Positions 1 through 40,451 of a DNA stretch of 41,819 nt are shown here, one piece after another. Position numbers and translations under genes: made by a program. The notes under the pieces were generated by a model. It saw only the letters and a program-made list of their open reading frames with translations, searched no databases and had not been told where the DNA came from. The stretch comes from a virus (lineage: Duplodnaviria; Heunggongvirae; Uroviricota; Caudoviricetes), in IMG/VR virus record IMGVR_UViG_2579779007_000006, positions 1-41,819 of that record. The stretch is one strand, 5' to 3'. How positions within the stretch are numbered: position 1 is the first letter of the stretch; each line of letters starts with the position of its first letter.

Positions 1-804
1 TTACTCTTTGTCCTCAACCAACAATGAGTTTTCGAAAGTAAATTCAGGTATGGGAACAACTTTGTCTTGGGAGAAAATAGCTTTTTTAATTACATGTTTA
101 TTTTTACACGTCTTGCAATATAACTCTGCTCCATCCTCCATGTCGCATAATGAGATGTGGTTTTTTTCACCACATATAAAGCAAGCTACTACAGCAGATT
201 GGAGTGATTCATATGTACCATCCGGGGCAAGTCTAATAATAACATAATTATGGCAACCAGCATTTTGGCAATCTATTTTATTATTTTTTTTCACGTAATT
301 TTTAGTAAAAATAATTTCCTTTTTACATTTTTCACATTTTATTTTCTCATAACCTCGATGAAATGTTATGAGCTGATGATCGCACAGTTCAGCTAAATTC
401 GATAATATCGAATTTAGTTTATCTTTATCTACTTGAAATTCTTGCTTTTTTATGGTTGGTTGATGTAAAAAACTCCCAAGGGTATTATACCATTTATTAA
501 GGTCCTTATACTTAATATTTTTATAGTTTGCTGTTATCTCATTAGAGTCATCACAAGTTATAGTTACTTTTAAATCCTGATCTGCTGTTTCCTCAAACAT
601 GCATAAAGATTTTATTGCTTGAGGTGGTTGCCATGTGTTAATTACCGTCTCTGGAATTGTTCCTAGCCCTGCTCTTAATTGAATATATACATGGCACTCA
701 ATTGCAAATCTCAATTCCAATGCACAGTATCTTAAAGAAGCGTTATCCCCAATTTCATAGAGCCTCTTAGCATTGCTAATATGCTCTTTATAATCATACC
801 CCAT
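1..804 (-). CDS. hypothetical Cys-rich protein, 267 aa, several CxxC pairs (zinc-ribbon-like)
   Basis: Complete ORF: stop codon is the reverse complement of bases 1..3, start at 804. Translation has paired cysteines (CEKC, CQNAGC, CFICGEK, CKTCKNK). Strongly AT-rich compared with the phage structural genes. No family recognised. Confidence 0.5.
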   Translation of the reverse strand: MGYDYKEHISNAKRLYEIGDNASLRYCALELRFAIECHVYIQLRAGLGTIPETVINTWQPPQAIKSLCMFEETADQDLKVTITCDDSNEITANYKNIKYKDLNKWYNTLGSFLHQPTIKKQEFQVDKDKLNSILSNLAELCDHQLITFHRGYEKIKCEKCKKEIIFTKNYVKKNNKIDCQNAGCHNYVIIRLAPDGTYESLQSAVVACFICGEKNHISLCDMEDGAELYCKTCKNKHVIKKAIFSQDKVVPIPEFTFENSLLVEDKE

Positions 805-1537
805 ATACTCCCTCCTACATCTCCGGCTAGATTGTAACTTATATAGTGTATCTTAGATCATCTCACTATCTAAGTAAGATATCATGGGGTATCGGAAGTT
901 CAACTCCTCGCATCAGTCAATAATTTAAATAAAAACAGACGGTTATGTCTTTATTTATTGTTTCCTCTAACTTCCTCCCCGTTGATTAACACACGCGCCA
1001 TAGTCAACTAAATCGGTTGCGACCGGGAGAAGCGGTAGCCAAAATTTTGCCACGATACGAGTGCTTGCCATCCCCCCTCAACTTCCGCTTTTGGCACATA
1101 GCAGCCCTAGAGACAGTGGCGTAAAGTCATGGAGGGTCGGTGGCAGGAGATGCAAATCCTCTCATACAAAAATACGTAAAATCAATAACGGCTAGAAATC
1201 ATTCAATACTCGCACTATCTAACATTTACCAGCCAACCGCAGCACGTCTTGCATACGACCTGTCTGCGGTTTCAATCACCTCTCACCACCAGTCCCATCA
1301 ATAATAATTAAACAGCGCCTAAACAAAATAAATAACAACAAGTCAACAACCTCGACAGGATGCCGATGGGATGATGAAGAGATAAGAAAGAATAACTAGT
1401 AAAGCCCTAAAACGTCAGCGTTCAGACGCGTTTTTTACTTAACCGGTAACAAATACGTTGTATCATAGCAACATAAAATGATTGTTCTAAATCAGATTAA
1501 CTCCTCACTTTTGTACAATGTCGCTTACAGGTATACC

Positions 1538-3427
1538 ATGAAATCCGAGACGCTAACTGTCCAACAACTTTTTCAAGACCGCCGACAATACTGCGTTCCA
1601 TTCTATCAACGTGCCTATGTATGGACTCAGCGAAACCAATGGTCAGCTCTACTGGAGGATATCCTAGAGAAAGCACAATCCCGGCTCTCGGGTACAAAAC
1701 CAACTCCCCATTTCCTTGGTGCAGTGGTACTGGAACCTCAACCAAAAAAAGGATTATTAGGTGTAGATTCCATACATATTATTGATGGTCAGCAACGATT
1801 GACCACTCTTCAATATGTTCTGGCATCCATCCGATTAGCATTACGTGCGACAGATCTTTCCAACTTAGAGCCTCTCATTTCGTCTTGCCTGAAAAACTCA
1901 AACGAAGACACAATGCGAAATAAAGAAGTAGAGCGCTTCAAACTGTGGCCAACTTTTCGGGATCAAACTCATTTTATTCAAAGTTTTAATGTTGAAAATA
2001 TTGACGATATCCGGAATGTATTCTCTGATAGTTTCACGCAGCATGGTACGTTGCGTAAGCATTTTAATCACCCGCCATCACTAGAAGCATTATGTTTTTT
2101 TACTGAAGCCTTTATAAAGTGGATTAAAATAGAAAATCACTCACCACGAGAAAATGCTGTAGCATTAATTGAGGCTGTCTTGACGGATCTGAAACTAGTA
2201 AGCATATTTCTCGAGGCTGAAGATGACGCTCAAATAATTTTTGAAACATTAAATGGCAGAGGTGCGGAACTTCATGCCACAGATCTTATTCGCAATTATA
2301 TTTTTATGTGCGCTGAACATGAAAATATTAATGCTGTTGAATTATATGAGAATGAGTGGAAGATCTTTGAAGATACGTACTGGTCAGAAAGACAACGTCG
2401 TGGTCGTATTAATAAACCACGCATGGAGTGGCTAGTGCATGCGACATTGCAATCAGAAAGGCAACGTGAAATCGATCTGTCTCGTCTTTACAATGAGTAT
2501 CGTGATTATGTAAGTAAGGACTTGCCTTCACAACGAGCAGATCTGCAAGTAAAGCGCCTCAAACAATATGCATCACAATATAAAGAATTGGTTGGTGGTT
2601 TTGGCACAACCCCCATCTCACACTTTGGACATCGCATCGCAGCCTATGATGTGACGACACTTTATCCGCTTGCTTTGTTCATTTCGATAGCTAACATCGC
2701 CGATGATGAGAAAGCAGCCATGTATAATGATCTTGTCTCCTACGTAGTACGAAGAGCCGTATGTGGCCTGACGCCAAAGAATTACAACAATGTATTTATG
2801 AATGTATTGCGGCACTTGTCTAAAACGGAAATTTCCAGTGTTGAGTTACGTAATATCCTCAATAGCTTAAATGGCGAAGCCTCACGTTGGCCTGGGGACT
2901 CAGAATTTCTCAACGCTTGCATCAATGCTCCACTTTATCCTGGCAGGCTCGACGCACCGAAAATGCGCTCAATGTTAACGGAACTTGAAAGAGAACTTTG
3001 TCGCCAAGTGAAGACAGAGAAGCCTGATGTTCCAAATCTTTCTAACCTCGATATCGATCATCTTATGCCTCAAAGTTGGTATTCCTGTTGGCCTCTCGAA
3101 AATGGTCATATGGTGACAAATTCAGATGCTACGGTATTGAACCAAATTGTTCTGTCTGGAACCGATCTTACCCCTGAACAGCTACTGGTAAGGAAACGGC
3201 AACAAGCGATAGCTACGTTGGGAAATCTAACTTTGCTTAACCTTAGCGTAAACCGTTCTGTTCAGAATGCTGTATTTCTGAAAAAACGTGATGCTCTCAT
3301 CGTCCACACCAATCTACGACTGAACATTCCACTTATAGTTAAGGATAAATGGGATGAGGATGAAATCCTGGAGCGGGGTAAAAAGTTGGGGGAAATTGCA
3401 TTGAAAGTATGGCCAAAACACGATTAA
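1538..3427 (+). CDS. GmrSD-like type IV restriction endonuclease candidate (DUF262 N-terminal, DUF1524/HNH-like C-terminal)
   Basis: N-terminal FYQRAYVW and IIDGQQRLTT motifs are typical of DUF262; C-terminal DIDHLMPQSW is a His-Me finger-like motif. Start chosen at MKSETLTVQQLF; the longest ORF begins at 1478. Confidence 0.7.
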   Translation: MKSETLTVQQLFQDRRQYCVPFYQRAYVWTQRNQWSALLEDILEKAQSRLSGTKPTPHFLGAVVLEPQPKKGLLGVDSIHIIDGQQRLTTLQYVLASIRLALRATDLSNLEPLISSCLKNSNEDTMRNKEVERFKLWPTFRDQTHFIQSFNVENIDDIRNVFSDSFTQHGTLRKHFNHPPSLEALCFFTEAFIKWIKIENHSPRENAVALIEAVLTDLKLVSIFLEAEDDAQIIFETLNGRGAELHATDLIRNYIFMCAEHENINAVELYENEWKIFEDTYWSERQRRGRINKPRMEWLVHATLQSERQREIDLSRLYNEYRDYVSKDLPSQRADLQVKRLKQYASQYKELVGGFGTTPISHFGHRIAAYDVTTLYPLALFISIANIADDEKAAMYNDLVSYVVRRAVCGLTPKNYNNVFMNVLRHLSKTEISSVELRNILNSLNGEASRWPGDSEFLNACINAPLYPGRLDAPKMRSMLTELERELCRQVKTEKPDVPNLSNLDIDHLMPQSWYSCWPLENGHMVTNSDATVLNQIVLSGTDLTPEQLLVRKRQQAIATLGNLTLLNLSVNRSVQNAVFLKKRDALIVHTNLRLNIPLIVKDKWDEDEILERGKKLGEIALKVWPKHD

Positions 3428-3522
3428 TGCAATTAATAAAATGATTATAGCGGCTTTACATTAGTAAGGCCGCTACTCACTATTAAATCCTTTAATTTGC
3501 AACAAGAACAGCAGTGTCAGCC

Positions 3523-3651
3523 CTAGGTTTCGGACTTTGTACCGCTTATCTTGTCTTCAAAAATCAGCTCGCATCCTGCACAGCTCAACGCATTACGTTG
3601 TAGATCGGTGTTCTGGTCATTTGTTGATACGCGTACATAGCCAATAAGCAT
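3523..3651 (-). pseudogene. truncated Pin/Gin/Cin-family serine DNA invertase (N-terminal 42 codons only)
   Basis: Minus-strand translation MLIGYVRVSTNDQNTDLQRNALSCAGCELIFEDKISGT matches the N-terminus of Pin/Gin invertases, including the catalytic serine context (VRVST), then ends at a stop after 42 codons. The rest of the gene is absent. Confidence 0.75.
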
Positions 3652-3677
3652 GGTAGCTCCCCCTGACAAAAGCAGGA

Positions 3678-4214
3678 ATGATGCCATTTGCTCGTTATTT
3701 CTGCATTTTCATAAACGTTGGTTTGGGAGAAGGTTCGGCATTACCCGTTGGCGTGCCTGTTCCGTGGCCTTCCGCCACTCCGCCAACAGGCTGGCTGAAA
3801 TGCAACGGAGCGGCTTTTTCTGCTGAAGAATACCCGGAACTGGCAAAGGTTTACCCGACCAATAAATTGCCTGATTTACGTGGTGAGTTTATTCGTGGCT
3901 GGGATGATGAACGTGGTGTGGATAGTGGGCGAACTCTGCTTTCAGCGCAAGGAGATGCTATTCGAAACATTACTGGCGGTTTTGGTCAGTTGCGCGTAAA
4001 CAGCGAAATTAATGCAATTGTCGATGTTCAAAGTGTGAGTGGGGCTTTTTACGGAGGTACCTCAGTCAGGAATAACATCAATGTATCTATGACATACGCT
4101 AATGACCGAAAAATCCGACAAGATGTTCACTTCTCGGCGGCAAATGTTGTTCCAACAGCAAATGAAAATCGTCCACGTAACATCGCCTTTAATTATATTG
4201 TGAGGGCCGCATGA
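3678..4214 (+). CDS. alternative tail-fibre C-terminal (variable) segment, silent orientation
   Basis: ORF shares the GLGE junction with the minus-strand tail fibre and lies inside the invertible segment followed by its own tfa. It has no constant N-terminal domain in this orientation. Confidence 0.6.
   Translation: MMPFARYFCIFINVGLGEGSALPVGVPVPWPSATPPTGWLKCNGAAFSAEEYPELAKVYPTNKLPDLRGEFIRGWDDERGVDSGRTLLSAQGDAIRNITGGFGQLRVNSEINAIVDVQSVSGAFYGGTSVRNNINVSMTYANDRKIRQDVHFSAANVVPTANENRPRNIAFNYIVRAA
3706..3731. repeat. invertase crossover site (pix/gix-like), left copy
   Basis: ttttcataaacgttggtttgggagaa; its reverse complement shares a perfect 14-bp core (ttctcccaaaccaa) with 5590..5615. Both copies lie on the codons for LGLGE in the two tail-fibre reading frames. 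Confidence 0.7.
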
Positions 4215-4816
4215 TGAATAAAGCTGTATTGAATAGCGAACTCATTGCCATAAAAGCGGGAGACATTATCATTTATAATTATGATGGTGAAACGCGGGAA
4301 TATATTTCTACATCAACTGAATATCTCGCTGTCGGCGTCGGTATCCCGGCATGTTCCTGTTTGGATGCACCAGGTACACATAAAGCTGGTTATGCAATCT
4401 GTCGCTCTGTAGATTTAAATTCATGGGAATATGTGCCAGACCATCGCGGTGAAGTTGTCTATAGTACCGAAACGGGAGATACCAAAGAAATCGCAGTTCC
4501 GGGTGATTATCCTGAAAATACAACCACTATCGCCCCGTTAACGCCATATGATAAATGGGATGGTGAGAAATGGGTGACGGATACTGAGGCACAGCATAGT
4601 GCCGCAGTAGACGCGGCAGAAGCACAGCGCCAGTCACTGATTGATGCAGCAATGGCTTCCATTAGTCTGATTCAGCTGAAATTACAGGCCGGACGGAAGT
4701 TGACGCAGGCAGAAACAACCCGACTTAACGCCGTGCTGGATTACACTGACGCGGTGACGGCAACAGATACCAGCACCGCGCCGGATGTCATCTGGCCTGA
4801 ACTGCCGGAGGCGTAG
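4211..4816 (+). CDS. tail fibre assembly protein (Tfa), partner of the silent fibre segment
   Basis: Tfa-like C-terminus (APDVIWPELP) mirrors that of the opposite-strand Tfa (APDIEWPTPP); start overlaps the stop of the preceding ORF. Confidence 0.7.
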   Translation: MMNKAVLNSELIAIKAGDIIIYNYDGETREYISTSTEYLAVGVGIPACSCLDAPGTHKAGYAICRSVDLNSWEYVPDHRGEVVYSTETGDTKEIAVPGDYPENTTTIAPLTPYDKWDGEKWVTDTEAQHSAAVDAAEAQRQSLIDAAMASISLIQLKLQAGRKLTQAETTRLNAVLDYTDAVTATDTSTAPDVIWPELPEA

Positions 4817-5228
4817 GCCATTCAATATCTGGCGCACTGGAAGTATCGACCAGTTCCAGTGCGTCCAGATAATCCAGCCACAGATTATATTGCGCCAGAT
4901 CCTCGCCTTTCAGACGACCAATAGCGGCTTTACCGGGCCATTGTTTACTGTTCATGTATTCATTGGCCTGGCTAATTAACTGCTGTTTTTTAGTTTCAGC
5001 AATATCCATAACCATTTTTTTATCTGGCGGAGATATTAATATCCATGCAGGTCTCCCCTGAGAGGTGGCACCTAATATAAAACCATCAGGAGGAATTTGC
5101 GTATATTTATTCCATTCATCATCTGATATTTCGATAGCATCATCTGGCCATCCAATACCGTTGTGATATTCTTCTTTGCGAGTTTCATCATAAAACCACA
5201 ATGTTGATGCACTGAAAAAAATTCTCAT
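4788..5228 (-). CDS. tail fibre assembly protein (Tfa), expressed orientation
   Basis: 146 aa directly downstream of the expressed tail fibre; conserved Tfa C-terminal motif. Confidence 0.75.
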   Translation of the reverse strand: MRIFFSASTLWFYDETRKEEYHNGIGWPDDAIEISDDEWNKYTQIPPDGFILGATSQGRPAWILISPPDKKMVMDIAETKKQQLISQANEYMNSKQWPGKAAIGRLKGEDLAQYNLWLDYLDALELVDTSSAPDIEWPTPPAVQAR

Positions 5229-5229
5229 T

Positions 5230-5892
5230 CTAATATCCTATCGCAAACCACGAGAAAGAAAGTTCTCTGGAATTGGCTGTTGGTGGCTGACCAATGCCCC
5301 CACGATAAAACGCCAGAGTTAATCCTCCTGCTTTGCGTGATGTTGTTTGAGCAAATACATAGTCATTTGTGTTCTCTTCCGCACTTAAAGCTCCTCCGGC
5401 AATACAGTCATTAGGGAATGCTGCAGGGAAATTAATCCAGATACTGGACTGCGTTGTCAGCTTTCCATACCCGGCTTTCAGAATTAATCCTCCTGGTAAC
5501 TCAAAATTAAGAGGATTGTTTTTTGTAAATGGAAAGTTGGAGATATCCGGTATCTGATTTTCCCCTGTCCCCACATCCCGTTTTGCCGCTTCTCCCAAAC
5601 CAAGGTTTTCGAGAGCCGTTTTCACCGTGCCATCCGATTTGATATCACCAAACGGATTCTTGCGGCTTAACAGCAGAGCACGAAGCGCGGTAAGCAACTG
5701 GTCATGCCGCCCCTTCTCCAGGCTGGCACCGGAGGTCTCCACAACGCTGCAAAGCTCCTCCTGCAACATGTCAAAGTAGTCATCATCCAGATCGGTGGCA
5801 GGCGTACCAGTCTGGGGATTACCACGGGTAAAACCGTTCTTACCCGCGCCGAACTTATCCTTCTGCGCGGTTTTCGTGTCTATACGATGCAT
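5230..5892 (-). CDS. side tail fibre protein (e14 StfE/StfP-like constant N-terminus plus variable C-terminus)
   Basis: N-terminus [52 protein letters not shown] recalls the e14 side tail fibre; the crossover site falls at residues 95-101 (ENLGLGE). Confidence 0.8.
5590..5615. repeat. invertase crossover site (pix/gix-like), right copy
   Basis: ttctcccaaaccaaggttttcgagag, in inverted orientation relative to 3706..3731. Confidence 0.7.
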
Positions 5893-5895
5893 GGA

Positions 5896-6480
5896 TTACT
5901 CCGGATATTTAAAAATTACGTAGGTATGCGACGGGCAGAGTTTGTTAAGCACACATTCGACAACGGTGTCGCCCCAGATACGCAGTGCGGAATCACAGGG
6001 ATCGCCACATGTCATCCAGGTGGTGTTGGTGGCGGCTGGCATGTTGACCTGCCAGTAATACCGCCATTCCGGCGCATTCACCGCGTCAGTACAGGAAGAT
6101 GAGCAGGTGAACGTGCTTTTGTCGTATCGCGTGATGGTAGCGTCTGGTCTGCCCAGGGCAGCAAGCTGTGCAAGGTAAAAATCCTCATTGATGCCGCCCG
6201 CCAGGTTAACCTTCGCATCCAGTCGTTGCTGACGCTGGCGAAGGGTCTGTGTCCCTGCGGGAATACATTCATCCGGCAGACCGCACAGACGCTCCCAGCG
6301 GTTTATCAGTTCAGTGGTGGTGCGCGGATCCAGCTCCCGCATCAGGGCATCCGCACGCTGATGAACGCGGGTTAATGACGGTGCCGCACCGGCAATCGCC
6401 GGATCTCTGGCTGACCACGCCGGACCGGGTGGCAACAGTGCCGACAACAGACGGATGTAATCATCGTTTGTCACGTCCAT
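5896..6480 (-). CDS. baseplate/tail protein, Mu gp48 / YmfQ-like
   Basis: 194 aa immediately upstream of the tail fibre, the position occupied by ymfQ in e14-type tail modules. Confidence 0.65.
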
Positions 6481-7529
6481 GAAATCGTCCCCAGTACCGC
6501 CAGTTCATTTTTTGCAATGGAGATATTGTCTGCCGGTGCAAGCAACTGATGGCTGTATTCCCCGTTCGCACCGGAAATCGCTTCACTGATACGTGACACC
6601 TTCAGTTCTCCCTGCGGATAACCATCACGCAGCAGGAACGAACGCAACTCCGCGGTAATGGCAGCCCGTATTTCTGGTGTGTCCGGCGTCACGCGGATAT
6701 GAAAATCCACCGTATGTGCCACCGGCCTGAATACATACAAATCAGAGCCTGCCACCGGGGCCAGTGGCCCGATATGTTGTCTTGCTGCCGTTTCCGTTGA
6801 TTCTTCCGGAATGGGATTAATCAGGTCACTGCTGGCAATCATCACACCGACAGTTCCCGTTCCCATCCAGTGGCGGTATGTCCATGCACGGGTAATGCCT
6901 GGCACTTCTTTAGCCCAGACGACATAGTCCCCGTCAGCCCCGCCCTGAGGCGTCCAGTAATACCGCTCAATGACGCGGGCGCGCCACGTTTCCAGCTCTT
7001 CAGTATCAAATCCGCCTGTCAGGGTGTCAGCCACACCGGAAGACGGCAGACCATTCACCGGCGTGACCAGGATTAATGCCGTACCGTCGTCAGCGTTACC
7101 GACCGCGCCTGTAGTTGAGCAAGTGATCGGCACACGCAGGACACCACCGGAGCTGGTTGCATCGGCAGTTGCCGTGTACTGAACCAGGTCATCGCGCTGA
7201 ATCACGCTCCCGGCAGTCACCTTCAGGCCATCGCTGACACCTTCCCAGCGCATATACCCGCTGGCAGCCGTGGCCCCCTTGCGCGGACACCGTTTCATCG
7301 CAGCATGTCGCGCCAGCCAGGACTCATCGCACAGGTCAGGCAGCATATTCATTGCCAGATAATCGATGTACCCGTAAACCGTATGCAGCGCCGCCGCATA
7401 CACCTTTGCCCGCACGTCTTCATCCATGCGCCGGAGCGTGTCGCTGACGTCCAGCCTGGCGAATAAATCGTTACGGAGCATACTGATATTTTCTGCCAGC
7501 GTCGGGCGCTGAAATTCACTGTCCGCCAT
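6471..7529 (-). CDS. baseplate J-like protein (Mu gp47-like)
   Basis: 352 aa in conserved gene order between the gp46-like and gp48-like genes; overlapping start/stop. Confidence 0.75.
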
Positions 7530-7944
7530 GCGTTATCGCACTCCACAGATCATCAAAAGAAATCATTACCGGTCCGTCACGACGCCAGAGAGTGATACTG
7601 TTACCCAGTTCATTAATCCCGGTGCGGCGGATATCCAGATCAATACGGGACACCACGCCGTCATCAACCATCCATTGCAGGCATTCGCGGATATACCCCC
7701 TTACCGTCTGCACCAGCTGATTGGTCAGTTTGCTGCGCTGAAGCAGCCACAGTCGGGAGCCGTAACGGTCATTCTGTACCGCAGGCCAGGTATCCCCCCA
7801 CCATCCCATCGGGACGTCGGCGTTGTCATCAGGCTCCGCCCGCCGCCAGGTAAACAGGGAAATCACCACGGCGCGGGTCAGCGGATCCAGCGGTGCGCTG
7901 GCGCAGGTGCGTTTACCGTTCACCGTCAGCCACAGTTCCATCAT
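7516..7944 (-). CDS. baseplate protein, Mu gp46-like
   Basis: 142 aa, conserved position in a Mu-type baseplate operon. Confidence 0.65.
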   Translation of the reverse strand: MMELWLTVNGKRTCASAPLDPLTRAVVISLFTWRRAEPDDNADVPMGWWGDTWPAVQNDRYGSRLWLLQRSKLTNQLVQTVRGYIRECLQWMVDDGVVSRIDLDIRRTGINELGNSITLWRRDGPVMISFDDLWSAITHGGQ

Positions 7945-8489
7945 GCCTCCATCGCTTTATCAGGTTTGTCGGTGTTACTGCCCTGACCGTTCTCTCTGTG
8001 ACGATGCCCGTTATAGGCAAGCCGCATCGCTGACATGGTGGTGCCGCCGGAGTCGCACAGGTCTTTCACCTGTCCTGTCACTTCCAGGTCCATTTCAAAA
8101 CGTGCTTCAGGTGCATTGCGAAACGTGATCGTTTTACCTGCACCGTCCACCACGATCCCCTCCCGGGTCAGCGTCACGGACTGCCCCTGATCGTCATAGA
8201 CAGCCACCTCACCCGTCTGCAGCCCTTTCAGGCGGTAGCGCCGGTCCGACACCGTAACAACCACCGCATGAGAACGGTCGCCATCCGGAAACAACACCAC
8301 CGCTTCCGCACCGCTGTTTGCCCTTGCGGTAAAACCGTAGGGTTCAAGATGTTCAACCCCGGCTTTGGGTTCACCGGCAATCAGGGACACATCCACGGTC
8401 TGACATTTCGTGGCGGCACTGATGCTTTTCACCACTGCCCGCCCAATCAGGCCGAGAAGTTGTCGCTGCATGGCTTCAATCGTCCTCAT
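7941..8489 (-). CDS. baseplate spike/assembly protein (Mu gp45 / P2 gpV-like)
   Basis: 182 aa following the P-like gene; translationally coupled. Confidence 0.65.
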   Translation of the reverse strand: MRTIEAMQRQLLGLIGRAVVKSISAATKCQTVDVSLIAGEPKAGVEHLEPYGFTARANSGAEAVVLFPDGDRSHAVVVTVSDRRYRLKGLQTGEVAVYDDQGQSVTLTREGIVVDGAGKTITFRNAPEARFEMDLEVTGQVKDLCDSGGTTMSAMRLAYNGHRHRENGQGSNTDKPDKAMEA

Positions 8490-9568
8490 CAGAACGGGTC
8501 CTCCTGTACTCTGGCTTTTTTCTTTTTCCGCGCACCGGGATCTTCGGGTTCAGGCAGATAAGCATCAGGTGGGCCGACACGGATTTCCGTCAGGGTGCCG
8601 TTCTGGTCCTGAGTAAACGTGACTTCCGAAACAAGCAGTTCGGTATTGTCGAAACCACAGACCGGATCAAAGACAATCACCCGCTGGTTGGGCTGCCACA
8701 GCGTACCGTTACCCTGTCGCCAGCCCTGCACCACATAGGTGGTTTCATCCGTCCGCGCCGCCCGTTGTCGGGCTTCAAAGTCCGCACGGGCAATACAGCC
8801 TGCCCCCGTAGCCTGCCCTGTCTGCCTGATATACATCGGACGGTAACGGGCAATAAATGCGTCCTCTGTGCGGGCCCGCAGCGCGGTGGTGGTGGCCTCA
8901 CCGAAATCATCGTCGTTTCCGGCACGCTGCCCCGCCACCTGGTAAACAGAAAATCGCTCCCGGATACTCTTCTCCGTATCGCAGGAAAGGATGTTTTCCC
9001 CGAGTACCAGCGCAGTATGTGCCCGCGTTGAGCCAATACCGCCAATCACCAGCCTGCCGTGCGGGTCGTCGTAAGCCAGTGCCTGCTGCTGACCGAGTAT
9101 TTTGTTGATTACCTCAATCACCGTTTCACCGTGATCAGGCTGAACATCAGGAATAACACCCGACGGCGCACCGCTGTTCACCACCTCAATGCCGAAAGGC
9201 GCAGCAAGCGCCTGCGCAATCTGCACCAGCGAGCGTCCGTTAAACTGTGTCGGTTCGGCTGCACAGTCAATCAGGTCAGCCGTCAGACTACGTCCGGCAA
9301 TACCGGTGCTGACCGAACGGGCATCGTAACGAACGGGAGTCGCCTCCACCCAGCCGGTGATCACCAGCTCATCACCAATCAGCACTTCCACTTTTGAACC
9401 GTTTTTAATGCGCGGCTGAAGCGTGGTGATACCCTCATCTCCCGGCCACTGGCGAGTGATCTCCACACTGAAATCCCGCGCCAGCCGTTCAATACCGGCA
9501 CCGATGCGCACCGATGTCCAGCCATTCCACTCCCGGCCATTTACCCGTAGCGTGACATTGTCGTTCAT
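8489..9568 (-). CDS. Mu P-like tail/baseplate hub protein
   Basis: 359 aa in conserved order after the DNA circulation protein. Confidence 0.7.
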   Translation of the reverse strand: MNDNVTLRVNGREWNGWTSVRIGAGIERLARDFSVEITRQWPGDEGITTLQPRIKNGSKVEVLIGDELVITGWVEATPVRYDARSVSTGIAGRSLTADLIDCAAEPTQFNGRSLVQIAQALAAPFGIEVVNSGAPSGVIPDVQPDHGETVIEVINKILGQQQALAYDDPHGRLVIGGIGSTRAHTALVLGENILSCDTEKSIRERFSVYQVAGQRAGNDDDFGEATTTALRARTEDAFIARYRPMYIRQTGQATGAGCIARADFEARQRAARTDETTYVVQGWRQGNGTLWQPNQRVIVFDPVCGFDNTELLVSEVTFTQDQNGTLTEIRVGPPDAYLPEPEDPGARKKKKARVQEDPF

Positions 9569-10935
9569 TGCACTGGCACCTTCAGAGGGATCACCGGCAC
9601 AAAGCCGGGATGCGTAATGGCATTACGCCGGATAATGTCCGCGTCACGCGCCGCGTTATCAAACCAGGTCGCCGCCAGCACCAGCGCGGGTAAAACCTCA
9701 TCCGGCGTGCGCTGAATGATCCGTGCAGACTGTTCAAGGCGCGTGTTGATATCCGCATTCAGATCTGCTTTCACCCGGCGCAGCGCCAGAAACAGCGCAT
9801 CACTGGTTGTACGGGACAACTCCTTATCAATTGCCGTATTCAGTGTGTCGCGAATGTCGGTCAGTTCTTCCCACGTTGGCAGGTCAACCGTGTTTTTCAC
9901 CGCCGGTGCATTGTTCAGTGCCGGATGCGTGACAGAAGGCCAGCCGGTGCTCTGCGCGGGTGTTGTTGACTGCCCCACTGTGGCATTCTGCATCACCGCG
10001 GAAGTTGTGGGCGCAGGCAATCGTGTGACGGCATACGCCGCTTCGCTGATTGCGGTCGTACGAAGGGTGCTGGCAACCACGTTACGCTGCTGCGTCGCCG
10101 TGGCGGTGGTTTTACTGTCCGTTTTCCAGACGCCGCGCGGTTGCAGATCGCTGCCGAGGCTGACACCGGAAAGCGTTTTGATCATGGTGACCAGGTCGCT
10201 GGCGTTACCATAAAGGCGTTTCCCGGTACGCCACATTTTCTGCACCTGCTCAACGAAATTTTTGCCTGACGATGGCGGCGGCAGAAGTACCGAGATATCC
10301 CCCTGCAACAGCCTGGCGGCATCCGATACGGCAGAATCCACCACTTTCATCGCATCAGAAACATACCCAAGCATTGTGCTGGCATTACCGACGACGTCGT
10401 TCTGCACAAAATCTGCCACGCCATCGATACTGAAACCACTGAAGCTGTCACTGATGCAGTCATCCAGTGCAGAACAGGATGACATCAGCGTCTGCGCCGT
10501 CGCCGCACCTGAAGTGGGGTAAGAGAGTTCTCCCGCTTCGACAAACTTCAGGTCAAAGCGGACAATACGCCCTTCACTCTTCGATGTGCTGACCCGAACT
10601 TCCCCGTCAACACAGACTTTCAGCTCACCGTAAGTCGGATGGACAAGCGTGCCGGGACCGGGTTTATTCAGCGCGTCAATCAGGCGATCGCGCTGGTCAA
10701 AGCAGTCATCTCCCACCACATAAGCTGTGATGGACGGGCGGAAAGTGATTTTCCCCAGGTCTTCGGTATAGGGTTTGTCGCGGTTCGGGTATTCGTGCGT
10801 TTCCACACGACGACCGGTTCCCGCACTTTCTTCTTCAACCTTAAATGGCACACCGCGAAATGACGCGTCCTGAAGTCTGTCTTTCCACGTCATATAAACT
10901 CCGTACATAAAAAATCCCACCGGAGTGGGACTCAT
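9565..10935 (-). CDS. DNA circulation protein (Mu N-like)
   Basis: 456 aa immediately downstream of the tape measure gene, as in Mu-type tail modules. Confidence 0.7.
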   Translation of the reverse strand: MSPTPVGFFMYGVYMTWKDRLQDASFRGVPFKVEEESAGTGRRVETHEYPNRDKPYTEDLGKITFRPSITAYVVGDDCFDQRDRLIDALNKPGPGTLVHPTYGELKVCVDGEVRVSTSKSEGRIVRFDLKFVEAGELSYPTSGAATAQTLMSSCSALDDCISDSFSGFSIDGVADFVQNDVVGNASTMLGYVSDAMKVVDSAVSDAARLLQGDISVLLPPPSSGKNFVEQVQKMWRTGKRLYGNASDLVTMIKTLSGVSLGSDLQPRGVWKTDSKTTATATQQRNVVASTLRTTAISEAAYAVTRLPAPTTSAVMQNATVGQSTTPAQSTGWPSVTHPALNNAPAVKNTVDLPTWEELTDIRDTLNTAIDKELSRTTSDALFLALRRVKADLNADINTRLEQSARIIQRTPDEVLPALVLAATWFDNAARDADIIRRNAITHPGFVPVIPLKVPVQ

Positions 10936-38971: not shown

Positions 38972-39321
38972 TGGAGCCATACAGCCTCACACTCGATGAG
39001 GCCTGTCATTTTCTCAAGATATCCAGACCGACTGCCATTAACTGGATACGCACAGGGCGTCTTCAGGCAACACGCAAAGATCCCACTAAGAATAAATCTC
39101 CTTACCTCACAACACGACAAGCCTGCATTGCGGCTCTTCAGTCTCCGCTGCATACTGTCCAGGTGAGCGCGGGTGATGGCATAACAGAGGAAAGAAAATG
39201 TCACTCTTCCGCAGAGGTGAAATATGGTACGCCAGTTTCACATTGCCGAACGGTAAAAGATTTAAACAGTCTCTTGGAACAAAGGACAAAAGGCAGGCGA
39301 CAGAACTCCATGACAAGCTAA
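38971..39321 (+). CDS. xis: excisionase
   Basis: 116 aa ([36 protein letters not shown]) closely matching P22 Xis as recalled; 3' end overlaps int. Confidence 0.85.
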
Positions 39322-40361
39322 AGGCTGAAGCATGGCGGGTCAGCAAACTTGGTGAAATACCTGATATAACGTTCGAGGAAGCGTGTGTCAGGTGGCTTGA
39401 AGAGAAAGCACATAAAAAATCACTGGACGATGACAAAAGCCGGATCGGATTCTGGCTTCAACATTTCGCAGGAATGCAACTAAGAGACATTACTGAATCA
39501 AAAATTTATTCAGCAATGCAGAAAATGACGAACCGGCGTCATGAGGAAAACTGGAAACTCAGGGCAGAAGCATGCAGAAAAAAAGGGAAACCTGTTCCAG
39601 AATACACGCCAAAACCAGCGTCCGTTGCAACGAAGGCTACGCATCTTTCATTTATAAAGGCCCTACTAAGAGCCGCAGAGCGTGAATGGAAAATGCTGGA
39701 TAAGGCACCAATTATTAAAGTGCCTCAACCAAAGAATAAACGGATCCGCTGGCTGGAGCCCCATGAAGCACAAAGGCTGATTGATGAATGTCCGGAGCCA
39801 TTAAAGTCTGTTGTTGAATTTGCACTGGCAACAGGCTTAAGACGCTCGAACATCATCAACCTTGAATGGCAACAAATAGATATGCAGCGCCGGGTGGCAT
39901 GGATAAACCCGGAAGAGAGTAAATCAAACCGCGCAATTGGCGTTGCGCTGAATGATACTGCATGTCGCGTATTGAAAAAACAAATCGGGAATCATCACCG
40001 TTGGGTATTTGTGTACAAGGAAAGCTGTACCAAACCAGACGGAACGAAAGCGCCAACAGTAAGGAAGATGCGGTATGACGCAAACACAGCCTGGAAAGCG
40101 GCGCTGAGACGGGCTGGTATTGATGATTTCAGATTTCACGACTTGAGACACACCTGGGCAAGTTGGCTGGTTCAAGCCGGAGTCCCGTTGTCAGTTTTAC
40201 AGGAAATGGGAGGCTGGGAGTCTATCGAAATGGTTCGTCGATATGCTCACCTTGCACCTAATCACCTTACCGAACACGCACGGCAAATAGACTCGATCCT
40301 GAACCCATCGGTCCCAAATTTGTCCCAGTCAAAAAATAAGGAAGGTACTAATGATGTGTAA
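39198..40361 (+). CDS. int: tyrosine integrase, P22 Int-like
   Basis: 387 aa beginning [47 protein letters not shown] with the catalytic R...HDLRHTWAS...Y region, ending 14 nt from the tRNA 3' end. Confidence 0.95.
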
Positions 40362-40375
40362 CTTATTGATTTTAA

Positions 40376-40451
40376 TGGTGCCGATAATAGGAGTCGAACC
40401 TACGACCTTCGCATTACGAATGCGCTGCTCTACCAACTGAGCTATATCGGC
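40376..40451 (-). tRNA. thrW: tRNA-Thr (anticodon CGU)
   Basis: The reverse complement reads GCCGATATAGCTCAGTTGGTAGAGCAGCGCATTCGTAATGCG...GGTTCGACTCCTATTATCGGCACCA, a canonical cloverleaf with a CGT anticodon. Confidence 0.95.

Follow-up and report, generated by a model that had tools for sequence, protein, structure and literature searches.

A GmrSD allele as probable lysogenic-conversion cargo in a variable defence slot at the tail-fibre end of a thrW-integrated prophage

In the cryptic prophage e14 of Escherichia coli K-12, the invertase gene pin is followed by mcrA, which encodes a Type IV modification-dependent nuclease. The locus described here raises the question of what occupies the equivalent position in a related prophage that has lost most of its invertase gene. 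It lies in IMG/VR virus record IMGVR_UViG_2579779007_000006, analysed over its entire 41,819 nucleotides (nt; hereafter the window), where an initial annotation made from the sequence alone had proposed a GmrSD-like enzyme with DUF262 and DUF1524 signatures. Judged by its sequence, the encoded protein is an allele of GmrSD itself, and the gene is very probably lysogenic-conversion cargo, carried by a thrW-integrated prophage of the SfV/SfII/e14 type at its tail-fibre end.

The six-frame list of open reading frames (ORFs) contains an uninterrupted frame of 649 amino acids (aa) at 1478–3427 on the plus strand, in keeping with the 630–650-aa protein first annotated there, a size range that spans both possible starts (629 and 649 aa). 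Pfam searches placed GmrSD_N (PF03235, formerly DUF262) at residues 28–276 of the 649-aa ORF over the full profile (positions 1–199; E = 6.9e-34) and GmrSD_C (PF07510, DUF1524) at residues 471–639 (E = 5.1e-20). Both matches are far above the Pfam gathering cut-offs, and the frame is therefore not a chance ORF. The true start is most likely the ATG at 1538, with the 20 codons upstream of it likely untranslated, because several sources agree on this position: RefSeq annotates 629 aa at identical and related loci; the PADLOC model mREase_IV PDLC03655 (629 positions) matches residues 21–649 from end to end with 1440.7 bits; a homologue in Enterobacteriaceae bacterium B14, 79% identical, is also a 629-aa ORF with the N-terminus MKSETLT; and MKSETLT is the N-terminus of the published GmrSD enzymes (PMC4437046). 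The coordinates of this and other features are collected in Table 1, and residue numbers below refer to the 629-aa protein.

The GmrSD family motifs defined by Machnicka et al. 2015 (PMC4619093) were found in the window protein, with IIDGQQRLTTL, matching the near-invariant DUF262 motif (I/V)(I/V)DGQQRLTT, at residue 81 (DGQQR at residue 83), IDHLMPQ, belonging to the (E/D)H...N...N signature of the DUF1524 His-Me finger, at 506 and the W...W motif at 605. Two regular expressions, LGNLxLL...N and NxxFxxKK, are off by one spacing residue, and the sequence at these sites is identical to that of the CT596 prototype. A search of NCBIfam with the protein returned no match, and phmmer against PDB chains returned a single weak DUF262 match (9jfl, 1.4e-07).

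Characterised enzymes offer a closer comparison. The sequences of CT596 GmrSD, Eco94GmrSD (WP_000834395; strain STEC_94C of E. coli) and UTI89 GmrSD (UTI89_C2960, the “UT enzyme” of E. coli UTI89) were transcribed from Supplementary Fig. S1 of He et al. 2015 (PMC4437046). These three and the window protein are all single-chain, two-domain proteins of 629 aa that align collinearly and without gaps. The window protein is identical to Eco94GmrSD at 593 of 629 residues (94.3%), to CT596 GmrSD at the same proportion, and to UTI89 GmrSD at 607 of 629 (96.5%). Relative to the biochemically characterised prototype represented by Eco94GmrSD and CT596 GmrSD there are 36 substitutions, 27 of them within residues 1–160, while all catalytic residues are shared; the 22 substitutions relative to the UT enzyme include K280T, R32Q/N33D and H524R. 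Residues D505, D507, H508, C517, N522, N528 and N535, along with E271, E273 and E278, are unchanged from Eco94GmrSD. Because the 94.3–96.5% identity is gap-free and both catalytic residues and motifs are retained, the protein is to be regarded as an allele of GmrSD rather than as merely GmrSD-like. The domain search and alignment, with DGQQR and D-H...N intact, thus bear out the original call of a DUF262/DUF1524 enzyme, a call that proves to have been understated.

Published work on these near-identical proteins suggests what the enzyme would do. Eco94GmrSD cleaves DNA containing 5-hydroxymethylcytosine (5hmC) or its glucosylated form (glc-5hmC) in an ATP-stimulated reaction, and its D507A, H508A and N522A variants are inactive; it restricts T4 delta-ip1 about 10^6-fold and wild-type T4 weakly, the injected IPI* inhibiting the enzyme (PMC4437046). 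In a 2025 study, T4 Ip1, Ip2 and Ip3 were each found to inhibit a different GmrSD variant. By analogy, the N-terminal DUF262 domain (ParB/Srx-like, with DGQQR) would bind nucleoside triphosphate (NTP), and the C-terminal DUF1524 His-Me finger (D507-H508-N522) would cut DNA carrying 5hmC or glc-5hmC, with NTP expected to stimulate cleavage. Because GmrSD cleaves such DNA, a lysogen would be predicted to restrict incoming T-even phages unless a matching internal-protein inhibitor is co-injected (T4 IPI*/Ip1 for the CT596 type). A more remote relative, BrxU (BREX island; E. fergusonii pEFER / ECOR21), belongs to the same DUF262 plus DUF1524 family and also cleaves modified-cytosine DNA with NTP stimulation. 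It is distant in sequence, was not detected in the phmmer search of PDB chains, resides in a plasmid or BREX context, also cuts 5-methylcytosine (5mC) DNA, and is inhibited by Ip2 and not by Ip1.

Several observations weigh against a protective enzyme at this locus. Its function is one that we infer, for this exact allele, from near-identical proteins, and purified UTI89 GmrSD showed no activity in vitro under any of the conditions tried, the reported phenotype being the restriction behaviour of strain UTI89 itself (PMC4437046). Among the residues mutagenised in Eco94GmrSD, position 280 is the only one that differs, lysine being replaced by threonine; in that enzyme E271 and E273 are essential, and an E278/K280 double mutant has low activity (PMC4437046). 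As a possible basis for expression from the prophage, only one weak promoter-like match was noted, in which 9 of 12 hexamer positions agree, in a region where such sites are no commoner than in shuffled sequence (9 versus 7.3 expected from shuffles). In several E. coli genomes gmrSD is interrupted by IS2 or IS3 or frameshifted (e.g. L017, 5225–7113), which suggests that the gene has been inactivated recurrently and is losable or possibly costly; this agrees with the report that the CT596 gene is difficult to clone in plasmids of higher copy number (PMC4437046).

The K280T substitution, the inactivity of the 96.5%-identical UT enzyme and the disrupted copies elsewhere, together with an adjacent invertase that is already a pseudogene, would also fit an allele that has drifted to inactivity and persists in the prophage as a decaying passenger, offering no protection. 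We consider this improbable, as the 629-codon frame is intact and retains every catalytic residue defined by mutagenesis. The ratio of nonsynonymous to synonymous divergence (dN/dS) is 0.11–0.14 when the window allele is compared with others from E. coli, and the exact protein sequence is present on 523 contigs, within a 90% cluster of 1185 members. Position 280 is naturally variable rather than conserved among intact homologues, being K in the prototype, S in the homologue of B14 and T, as here, in the S3 allele, and a lysine there is probably dispensable. Strain UTI89 is, moreover, reported to be IPI*-insensitive and to restrict the T-even phages T2 and T6, though not T4 (PMC4437046). An active GmrSD allele therefore remains the reading that we favour, and gmrSD is carried by about 300 of 5426 complete E. 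coli genomes, always on the chromosome.

Variation among the E. coli alleles is concentrated near the N-terminus, with 35 of 59 variable positions in the first 200 residues. Codons 1–160 (window 1538–2017) fall into two deep haplotypes, a CT/Eco94 type and a UT type, separated by a synonymous divergence (dS) of about 0.7 in comparisons with the alleles of strains MIN6 (L002), S3 (L004) and SW4848 (L005), whereas CT-type and UT-type alleles differ by dS of about 0.10–0.15 over the rest of the gene. Recombination is favoured because dS is about 0.7 within this block and about 0.15 elsewhere, and the pattern fits a recombinant mosaic in which an old N-terminal haplotype has been recombined. Gene-wide positive selection was considered and rejected, since dN/dS is 0.13–0.14 between CT and UT types and stays within 0.06–0.34 across every region and pair; recombination accounts better for the N-terminal clustering.

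The window allele combines UT-like N-terminal 160 residues with a different backbone, plus K280T. Over those 160 codons it has nearly the same haplotype as UTI89 GmrSD, and its dS from the MIN6 allele, which is 99.2% UT-like, is 0.065. The N-terminal block may govern sensitivity to IPI*/Ip inhibitors and hence phage range. Because this block is of the UTI89 type in the window allele, its phage range would be expected to be more UT-like, that is, insensitive to IPI* and restricting T2 and T6 but not T4, although this expectation is uncertain because the purified UT enzyme is inactive in vitro.

The host element is a whole prophage, integrated at thrW next to proA. Its tail and baseplate genes are 96–98% identical to those of Shigella phages SfI, SfII, SfIV and SfV, and sheath, capsid, portal, terminase, tape-measure, repressor and integrase genes are all present in the window. 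The 417-aa aldehyde-dehydrogenase-family gene at the right end is taken to be proA, and thrW-proA is presumably the attachment site of SfV-type phages. An assignment of this gene to icd, the e14 site, was rejected, as it matches the aldehyde dehydrogenase family only and adjoins a tRNA-Thr gene. A second attachment copy was sought within the window and none was found inside it; at the locus of strain Res13 (L001), identical to the window over 1–3732, a second copy of the 3′ 32 nt of thrW lies about 1 kb to the left of the window-start equivalent. From the outside inwards, the cargo of this end consists of a gene for a 4-fold beta flower protein beyond the window, a 267-aa gene, gmrSD and the pin remnant.

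The enzyme and its location are already known. He et al. 2015 reported that the genes for Eco94GmrSD and UTI89 GmrSD sit on SfII-like prophages directly downstream of tail-fibre genes (PMC4437046), and the window gene shares both the prophage type and this site with the Eco94/CT596 enzymes. Neither e14 nor any invertase or recombinase comes up in the text of that paper, where McrA figures solely as one more Type IV enzyme and as part of a strain genotype (PMC4437046).

It is the invertase that places the cassette relative to e14. On the minus strand next to gmrSD, a Pfam Resolvase match (9e-09) marks the start of a Pin/Gin-type gene, and BLAST against e14 of K-12 (NC_000913) gave about 94% identity over the first 124 nt of pinE, ending at window 3528. 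With 124 of the 555 nt of pinE kept, about 78% of the invertase gene is gone, and unrelated sequence and a stop codon follow. The product, which lacks a DNA-binding domain and the remainder of the catalytic one, falls well short of a full-length Din-family invertase (about 184 aa, with a whole catalytic domain and a C-terminal helix-turn-helix), so that by its sequence pin′ is a remnant and not a functional member of the Din family (Pin/Gin/Cin/Hin). RefSeq labels it “recombinase family protein, missing C-terminus” at such loci. In e14, pin is intact, and there is no homology between e14 and the window beyond pin nt 124.

The enzyme gene in e14 occupies the same slot of a related prophage, in the order tail-fibre invertible segment, pin, enzyme and prophage end, as checked against NC_000913. 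McrA, too, is a modification-dependent nuclease of Type IV whose catalytic domain is HNH/His-Me, but it is an unrelated protein of other architecture, encoded by an 834-nt gene (about 277 aa), and its target according to a review is m5C (C5mCGG). The correspondence is tighter in strain SW4848, whose prophage is of the e14 type, is integrated at icd and has the e14 chromosomal flank icdC′, iraM, ycgX and bluR. There, K-12 homology reaches the right boundary of e14 (L003 17406) and resumes in pin (L003 15821), 12 nt beyond the clear junction; the 1.6 kb of e14 that hold the 3′ part of pin and mcrA are replaced by 2.8 kb with gmrSD. The SW4848 allele is 99.8% identical to Eco94GmrSD and has the same pin′ junction as the window. 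The statement that the gene stands where e14 carries mcrA, as first annotated, is thus literal for this prototype allele and, on comparison of the sequences, holds by synteny for the window.

The junction itself was examined in a multiple alignment of the window (thrW), MIN6 (ssrA), S3 (thrW) and SW4848 (icd) alleles with e14 pinE. The breakpoint and the downstream sequence are identical in all four alleles save for a 1-nt indel, the sequence reading …AAGTCCGAAA up to the breakpoint and CCTAGGGCTGACA… beyond it. Whereas the left edge of the homology shifts with context, beginning at window 1080, 1195, 1327 or 1432, the right edge of the cassette is always the pin junction. Because alleles from the three sites thrW, ssrA and icd, 92–100% identical in DNA, share one breakpoint, a single ancestral event in all likelihood fused the cassette to about codon 41 of pin, the rest of pin being removed. 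The cassette-plus-pin′ module then spread among related prophages at these three sites. UTI89 GmrSD fits the same scheme: its carrier is an SfII-like prophage, and the MIN6-type locus at ssrA shows the same pin′ junction, although a UTI89-type locus differs from the window in lying in an ssrA rather than a thrW prophage and in its outer cargo.

Whether gaining gmrSD is what cost the prophage its invertase, as the initial annotation proposed, is a separate matter. The truncation stands, and so does a single junction; that the insertion deleted pin in one step is what we infer. The data give no order for the two events, about 20 nt beyond the end of clear homology are patchily pin-like and blur the exact breakpoint, and in SW4848 a further 573 nt of unassigned sequence separate icdC′ from the cassette, which indicates repeated rebuilding of the slot. 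Truncation of pin and acquisition of gmrSD could accordingly be separate events, in either order, with the acquisition not having removed the invertase, but we regard this as rather unlikely. Every GmrSD allele examined at the three sites has the same junction, and among the sampled loci neither a cassette beside a full-length pin nor such a pin remnant without a cassette was seen. Of the sampled pin matches cut at nt 122–124, those compared with the GmrSD search results or inspected individually fall at gmrSD loci. A scan of genome contigs for relatives gave four loci, the closest of which, in B14, has a non-prophage context without pin and is uninformative on the junction. Partial pin matches covering nt 124–264 were considered as the missing complement of the deletion and rejected, being an unrelated remnant near ypjA.

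The gmrSD slot of SfV/SfII/e14-type prophages, flanked on one side by the tail-fibre invertible segment with pin and on the other by the attachment site, differs in content among relatives. PADLOC searches of prophages that keep an intact pin, and that share baseplate and tail-fibre genes with the window, recovered other defence genes in it: PD-T4-3, Ppl, Septu with PDC-S15, and PDC-M66A/B, in addition to the McrA of e14 (Table 1). The outer gene beside gmrSD varies as well, being a Type IIG/ISP restriction-modification (R-M) enzyme in S3, an AbiTii-like protein in MIN6 and the 267-aa orphan in the window. The same slot thus accommodates at least seven further known or candidate defence systems. 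The idea of defence-gene turnover at this prophage-end hotspot, put forward from the window alone, is well supported by these sequence comparisons. The hotspot principle is not new, because hotspots beside tail-fibre genes and invertases have already been described for P2-like phages.

Table 1. Features of the GmrSD-bearing prophage end in the window and content of the corresponding slot in related prophages
Feature	Source	Coordinates	Strand	Description
gmrSD coding sequence	window	1538..3427	+	629 aa; in-frame upstream ATG at 1478 extends the ORF to 649 aa
Candidate sigma-70-like promoter	window	1439..1466	+	TTAACC-16-TATCAT, within the edge of the conserved cassette and ~70 nt upstream of ATG 1538
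G+C-rich hairpin, 12 bp	window	3448..3475	.	between the gmrSD stop and the pin remnant; T-rich tail on the minus strand
Minimal GmrSD cassette	window	1432..3527	+	upstream region, gene and 3′ hairpin; common to all E. coli alleles
pin′ remnant	window	3529..3651	-	41 codons from the start of a gene for a Pin/Gin-type serine DNA invertase (MLIGYVRVSTNDQ...)
Outer cargo gene, 267-aa orphan	window	1..804	-	low G+C, 0.29-0.33; helical HEPN-like domain at the N-terminus, four CxxC pairs towards the C-terminus
Invertible tail-fibre (P/G-type) segment	window	3713..5608	.	20-nt inverted repeats at 3713-3732 and 5589-5608
Tyrosine integrase	window	39198..40361	+	Pfam Phage_integrase 3.2e-48; opposite prophage end from gmrSD
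tRNA-Thr(CGT), thrW, attachment site	window	40376..40451	-	beside the 417-aa aldehyde-dehydrogenase-family gene
Slot content	e14			McrA
Slot content	Sakai Sp1 (L010)	5613-6386		PD-T4-3, 2e-140
Slot content	OkiPb01716 (L011)	6995-9748		Ppl, 2.3e-157
Slot content	81EVA (L013)	5890-9523		Septu PtuA 9.6e-171, PtuB 7.6e-33, and PDC-S15
Slot content	GE3 (L012)	5730-7285		PDC-M66A/B with DinI and UmuDC
Slot content	S3 (L004)	2322-5498		Type IIG/ISP R-M enzyme outside GmrSD
Slot content	MIN6 (L002)	6531-7451		AbiTii-like protein outside GmrSD

Two non-coding parts of the cassette region deserve description. The hairpin downstream of gmrSD is probably a terminator, with a minimum free energy of -22 kcal/mol (z = -4.5), and is kept in all alleles aligned. 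The non-coding stretch at 805–1432, on the other side of the gene, is patchily shared, homology beginning at 1080, 1092, 1195, 1260, 1327 or 1432 depending on the strain. Some matches to it overlap an annotated “ydfV”, and it resembles a recombination-prone junction region.

The 267-aa gene next to gmrSD has no match in Pfam, PADLOC, NCBIfam or PHROGs. Its product has the four helices expected of a HEPN fold, and four CxxC pairs are conserved in its C-terminal half. An invariant R32 and a near-invariant H38 (RFAIECH, Rx5H) have the spacing of the HEPN motif Rx4-6H but lie in predicted helix 2; a later helix instead contains an invariant Y106-N107...H114. In HEPN families the catalytic motif is usually found in the last helix, where it begins that core helix. 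Only 19 homologues were found, all in Enterobacterales. The homologue of Pantoea ananatis lies at a prophage end after tail-fibre genes, and that of Enterobacter hormaechei in an island bounded by an integrase, alongside genes for HigB (toxin-antitoxin), Mrr-like and FRG-domain proteins. The gene can reasonably be considered a candidate new defence gene. Farther out, between the attachment copy and the 267-aa gene of Res13, the 4-fold beta flower protein gene (L001 7341–7772, about 230–660 nt left of the window-start equivalent) has no PHROG match and is a further unexplained cargo gene of this prophage end.

Since the 267-aa gene and gmrSD are neighbours in one cargo region, on opposite strands and 733 nt apart, and since a two-gene GmrS1/GmrSD2 system exists in ECOR17, the divergently encoded HEPN-like/zinc-ribbon protein could be thought to form a two-gene system with GmrSD. 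This is highly improbable: of the 5426 complete E. coli genomes, 3 have the 267-aa gene and about 300 have gmrSD, whose neighbour elsewhere is the Type IIG/ISP enzyme, the AbiTii-like gene or chromosomal flank; homologues without GmrSD are found in Enterobacter and Pantoea; and Eco94GmrSD and CT596 GmrSD are reported to act alone. By their distribution in sequenced genomes, the two genes are neither linked nor co-inherited, and we return to GmrSD as a single-gene enzyme. A bolder pair of proposals, which we put forward together and only tentatively, is that the window allele represents a third GmrSD type, whose phage range or Ip escape may differ from those of the CT596/Eco94 and UTI89 enzymes alike, and that window 1–804 encodes a new single-gene anti-phage effector.

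Inward of the pin remnant, the 1.9-kb invertible segment encodes two alternative tail-fibre C-termini and two tail-fibre assembly genes, with Pfam matches to Collar, Caudo_TAP (twice) and Gp53-like_C. The segment is flipped relative to that of Res13 (L001 11713–13608), the segment being 99.4% and the left flank 99.97% identical, and pin is cut to 41 codons in both strains. The truncation is older than the flip, being common to alleles that are 8–10% divergent in DNA. Because the truncation predates the flip, yet near-identical strains differ in orientation, some other Pin/Gin-type invertase encoded in the genome must have carried out the inversion in trans. Inversion of cryptic-prophage DNA by PinQ of prophage Qin has recently been reported (PMC12529663).

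For the GmrSD enzyme, the founding member of its family, the comparison adds modestly to what was known: thrW, ssrA and icd prophages share a single gmrSD–pin′ junction, and at the e14 site the module literally takes the place of the 3′ part of pin and mcrA. The locus also serves as a calibration case, in that a Type IV gene, the truncated gene beside it and the hotspot logic were all correctly recognised from raw sequence. These results are of use in annotating the cargo of E. coli prophages and in picking natural GmrSD alleles to set against the Ip inhibitors of T-even phages.

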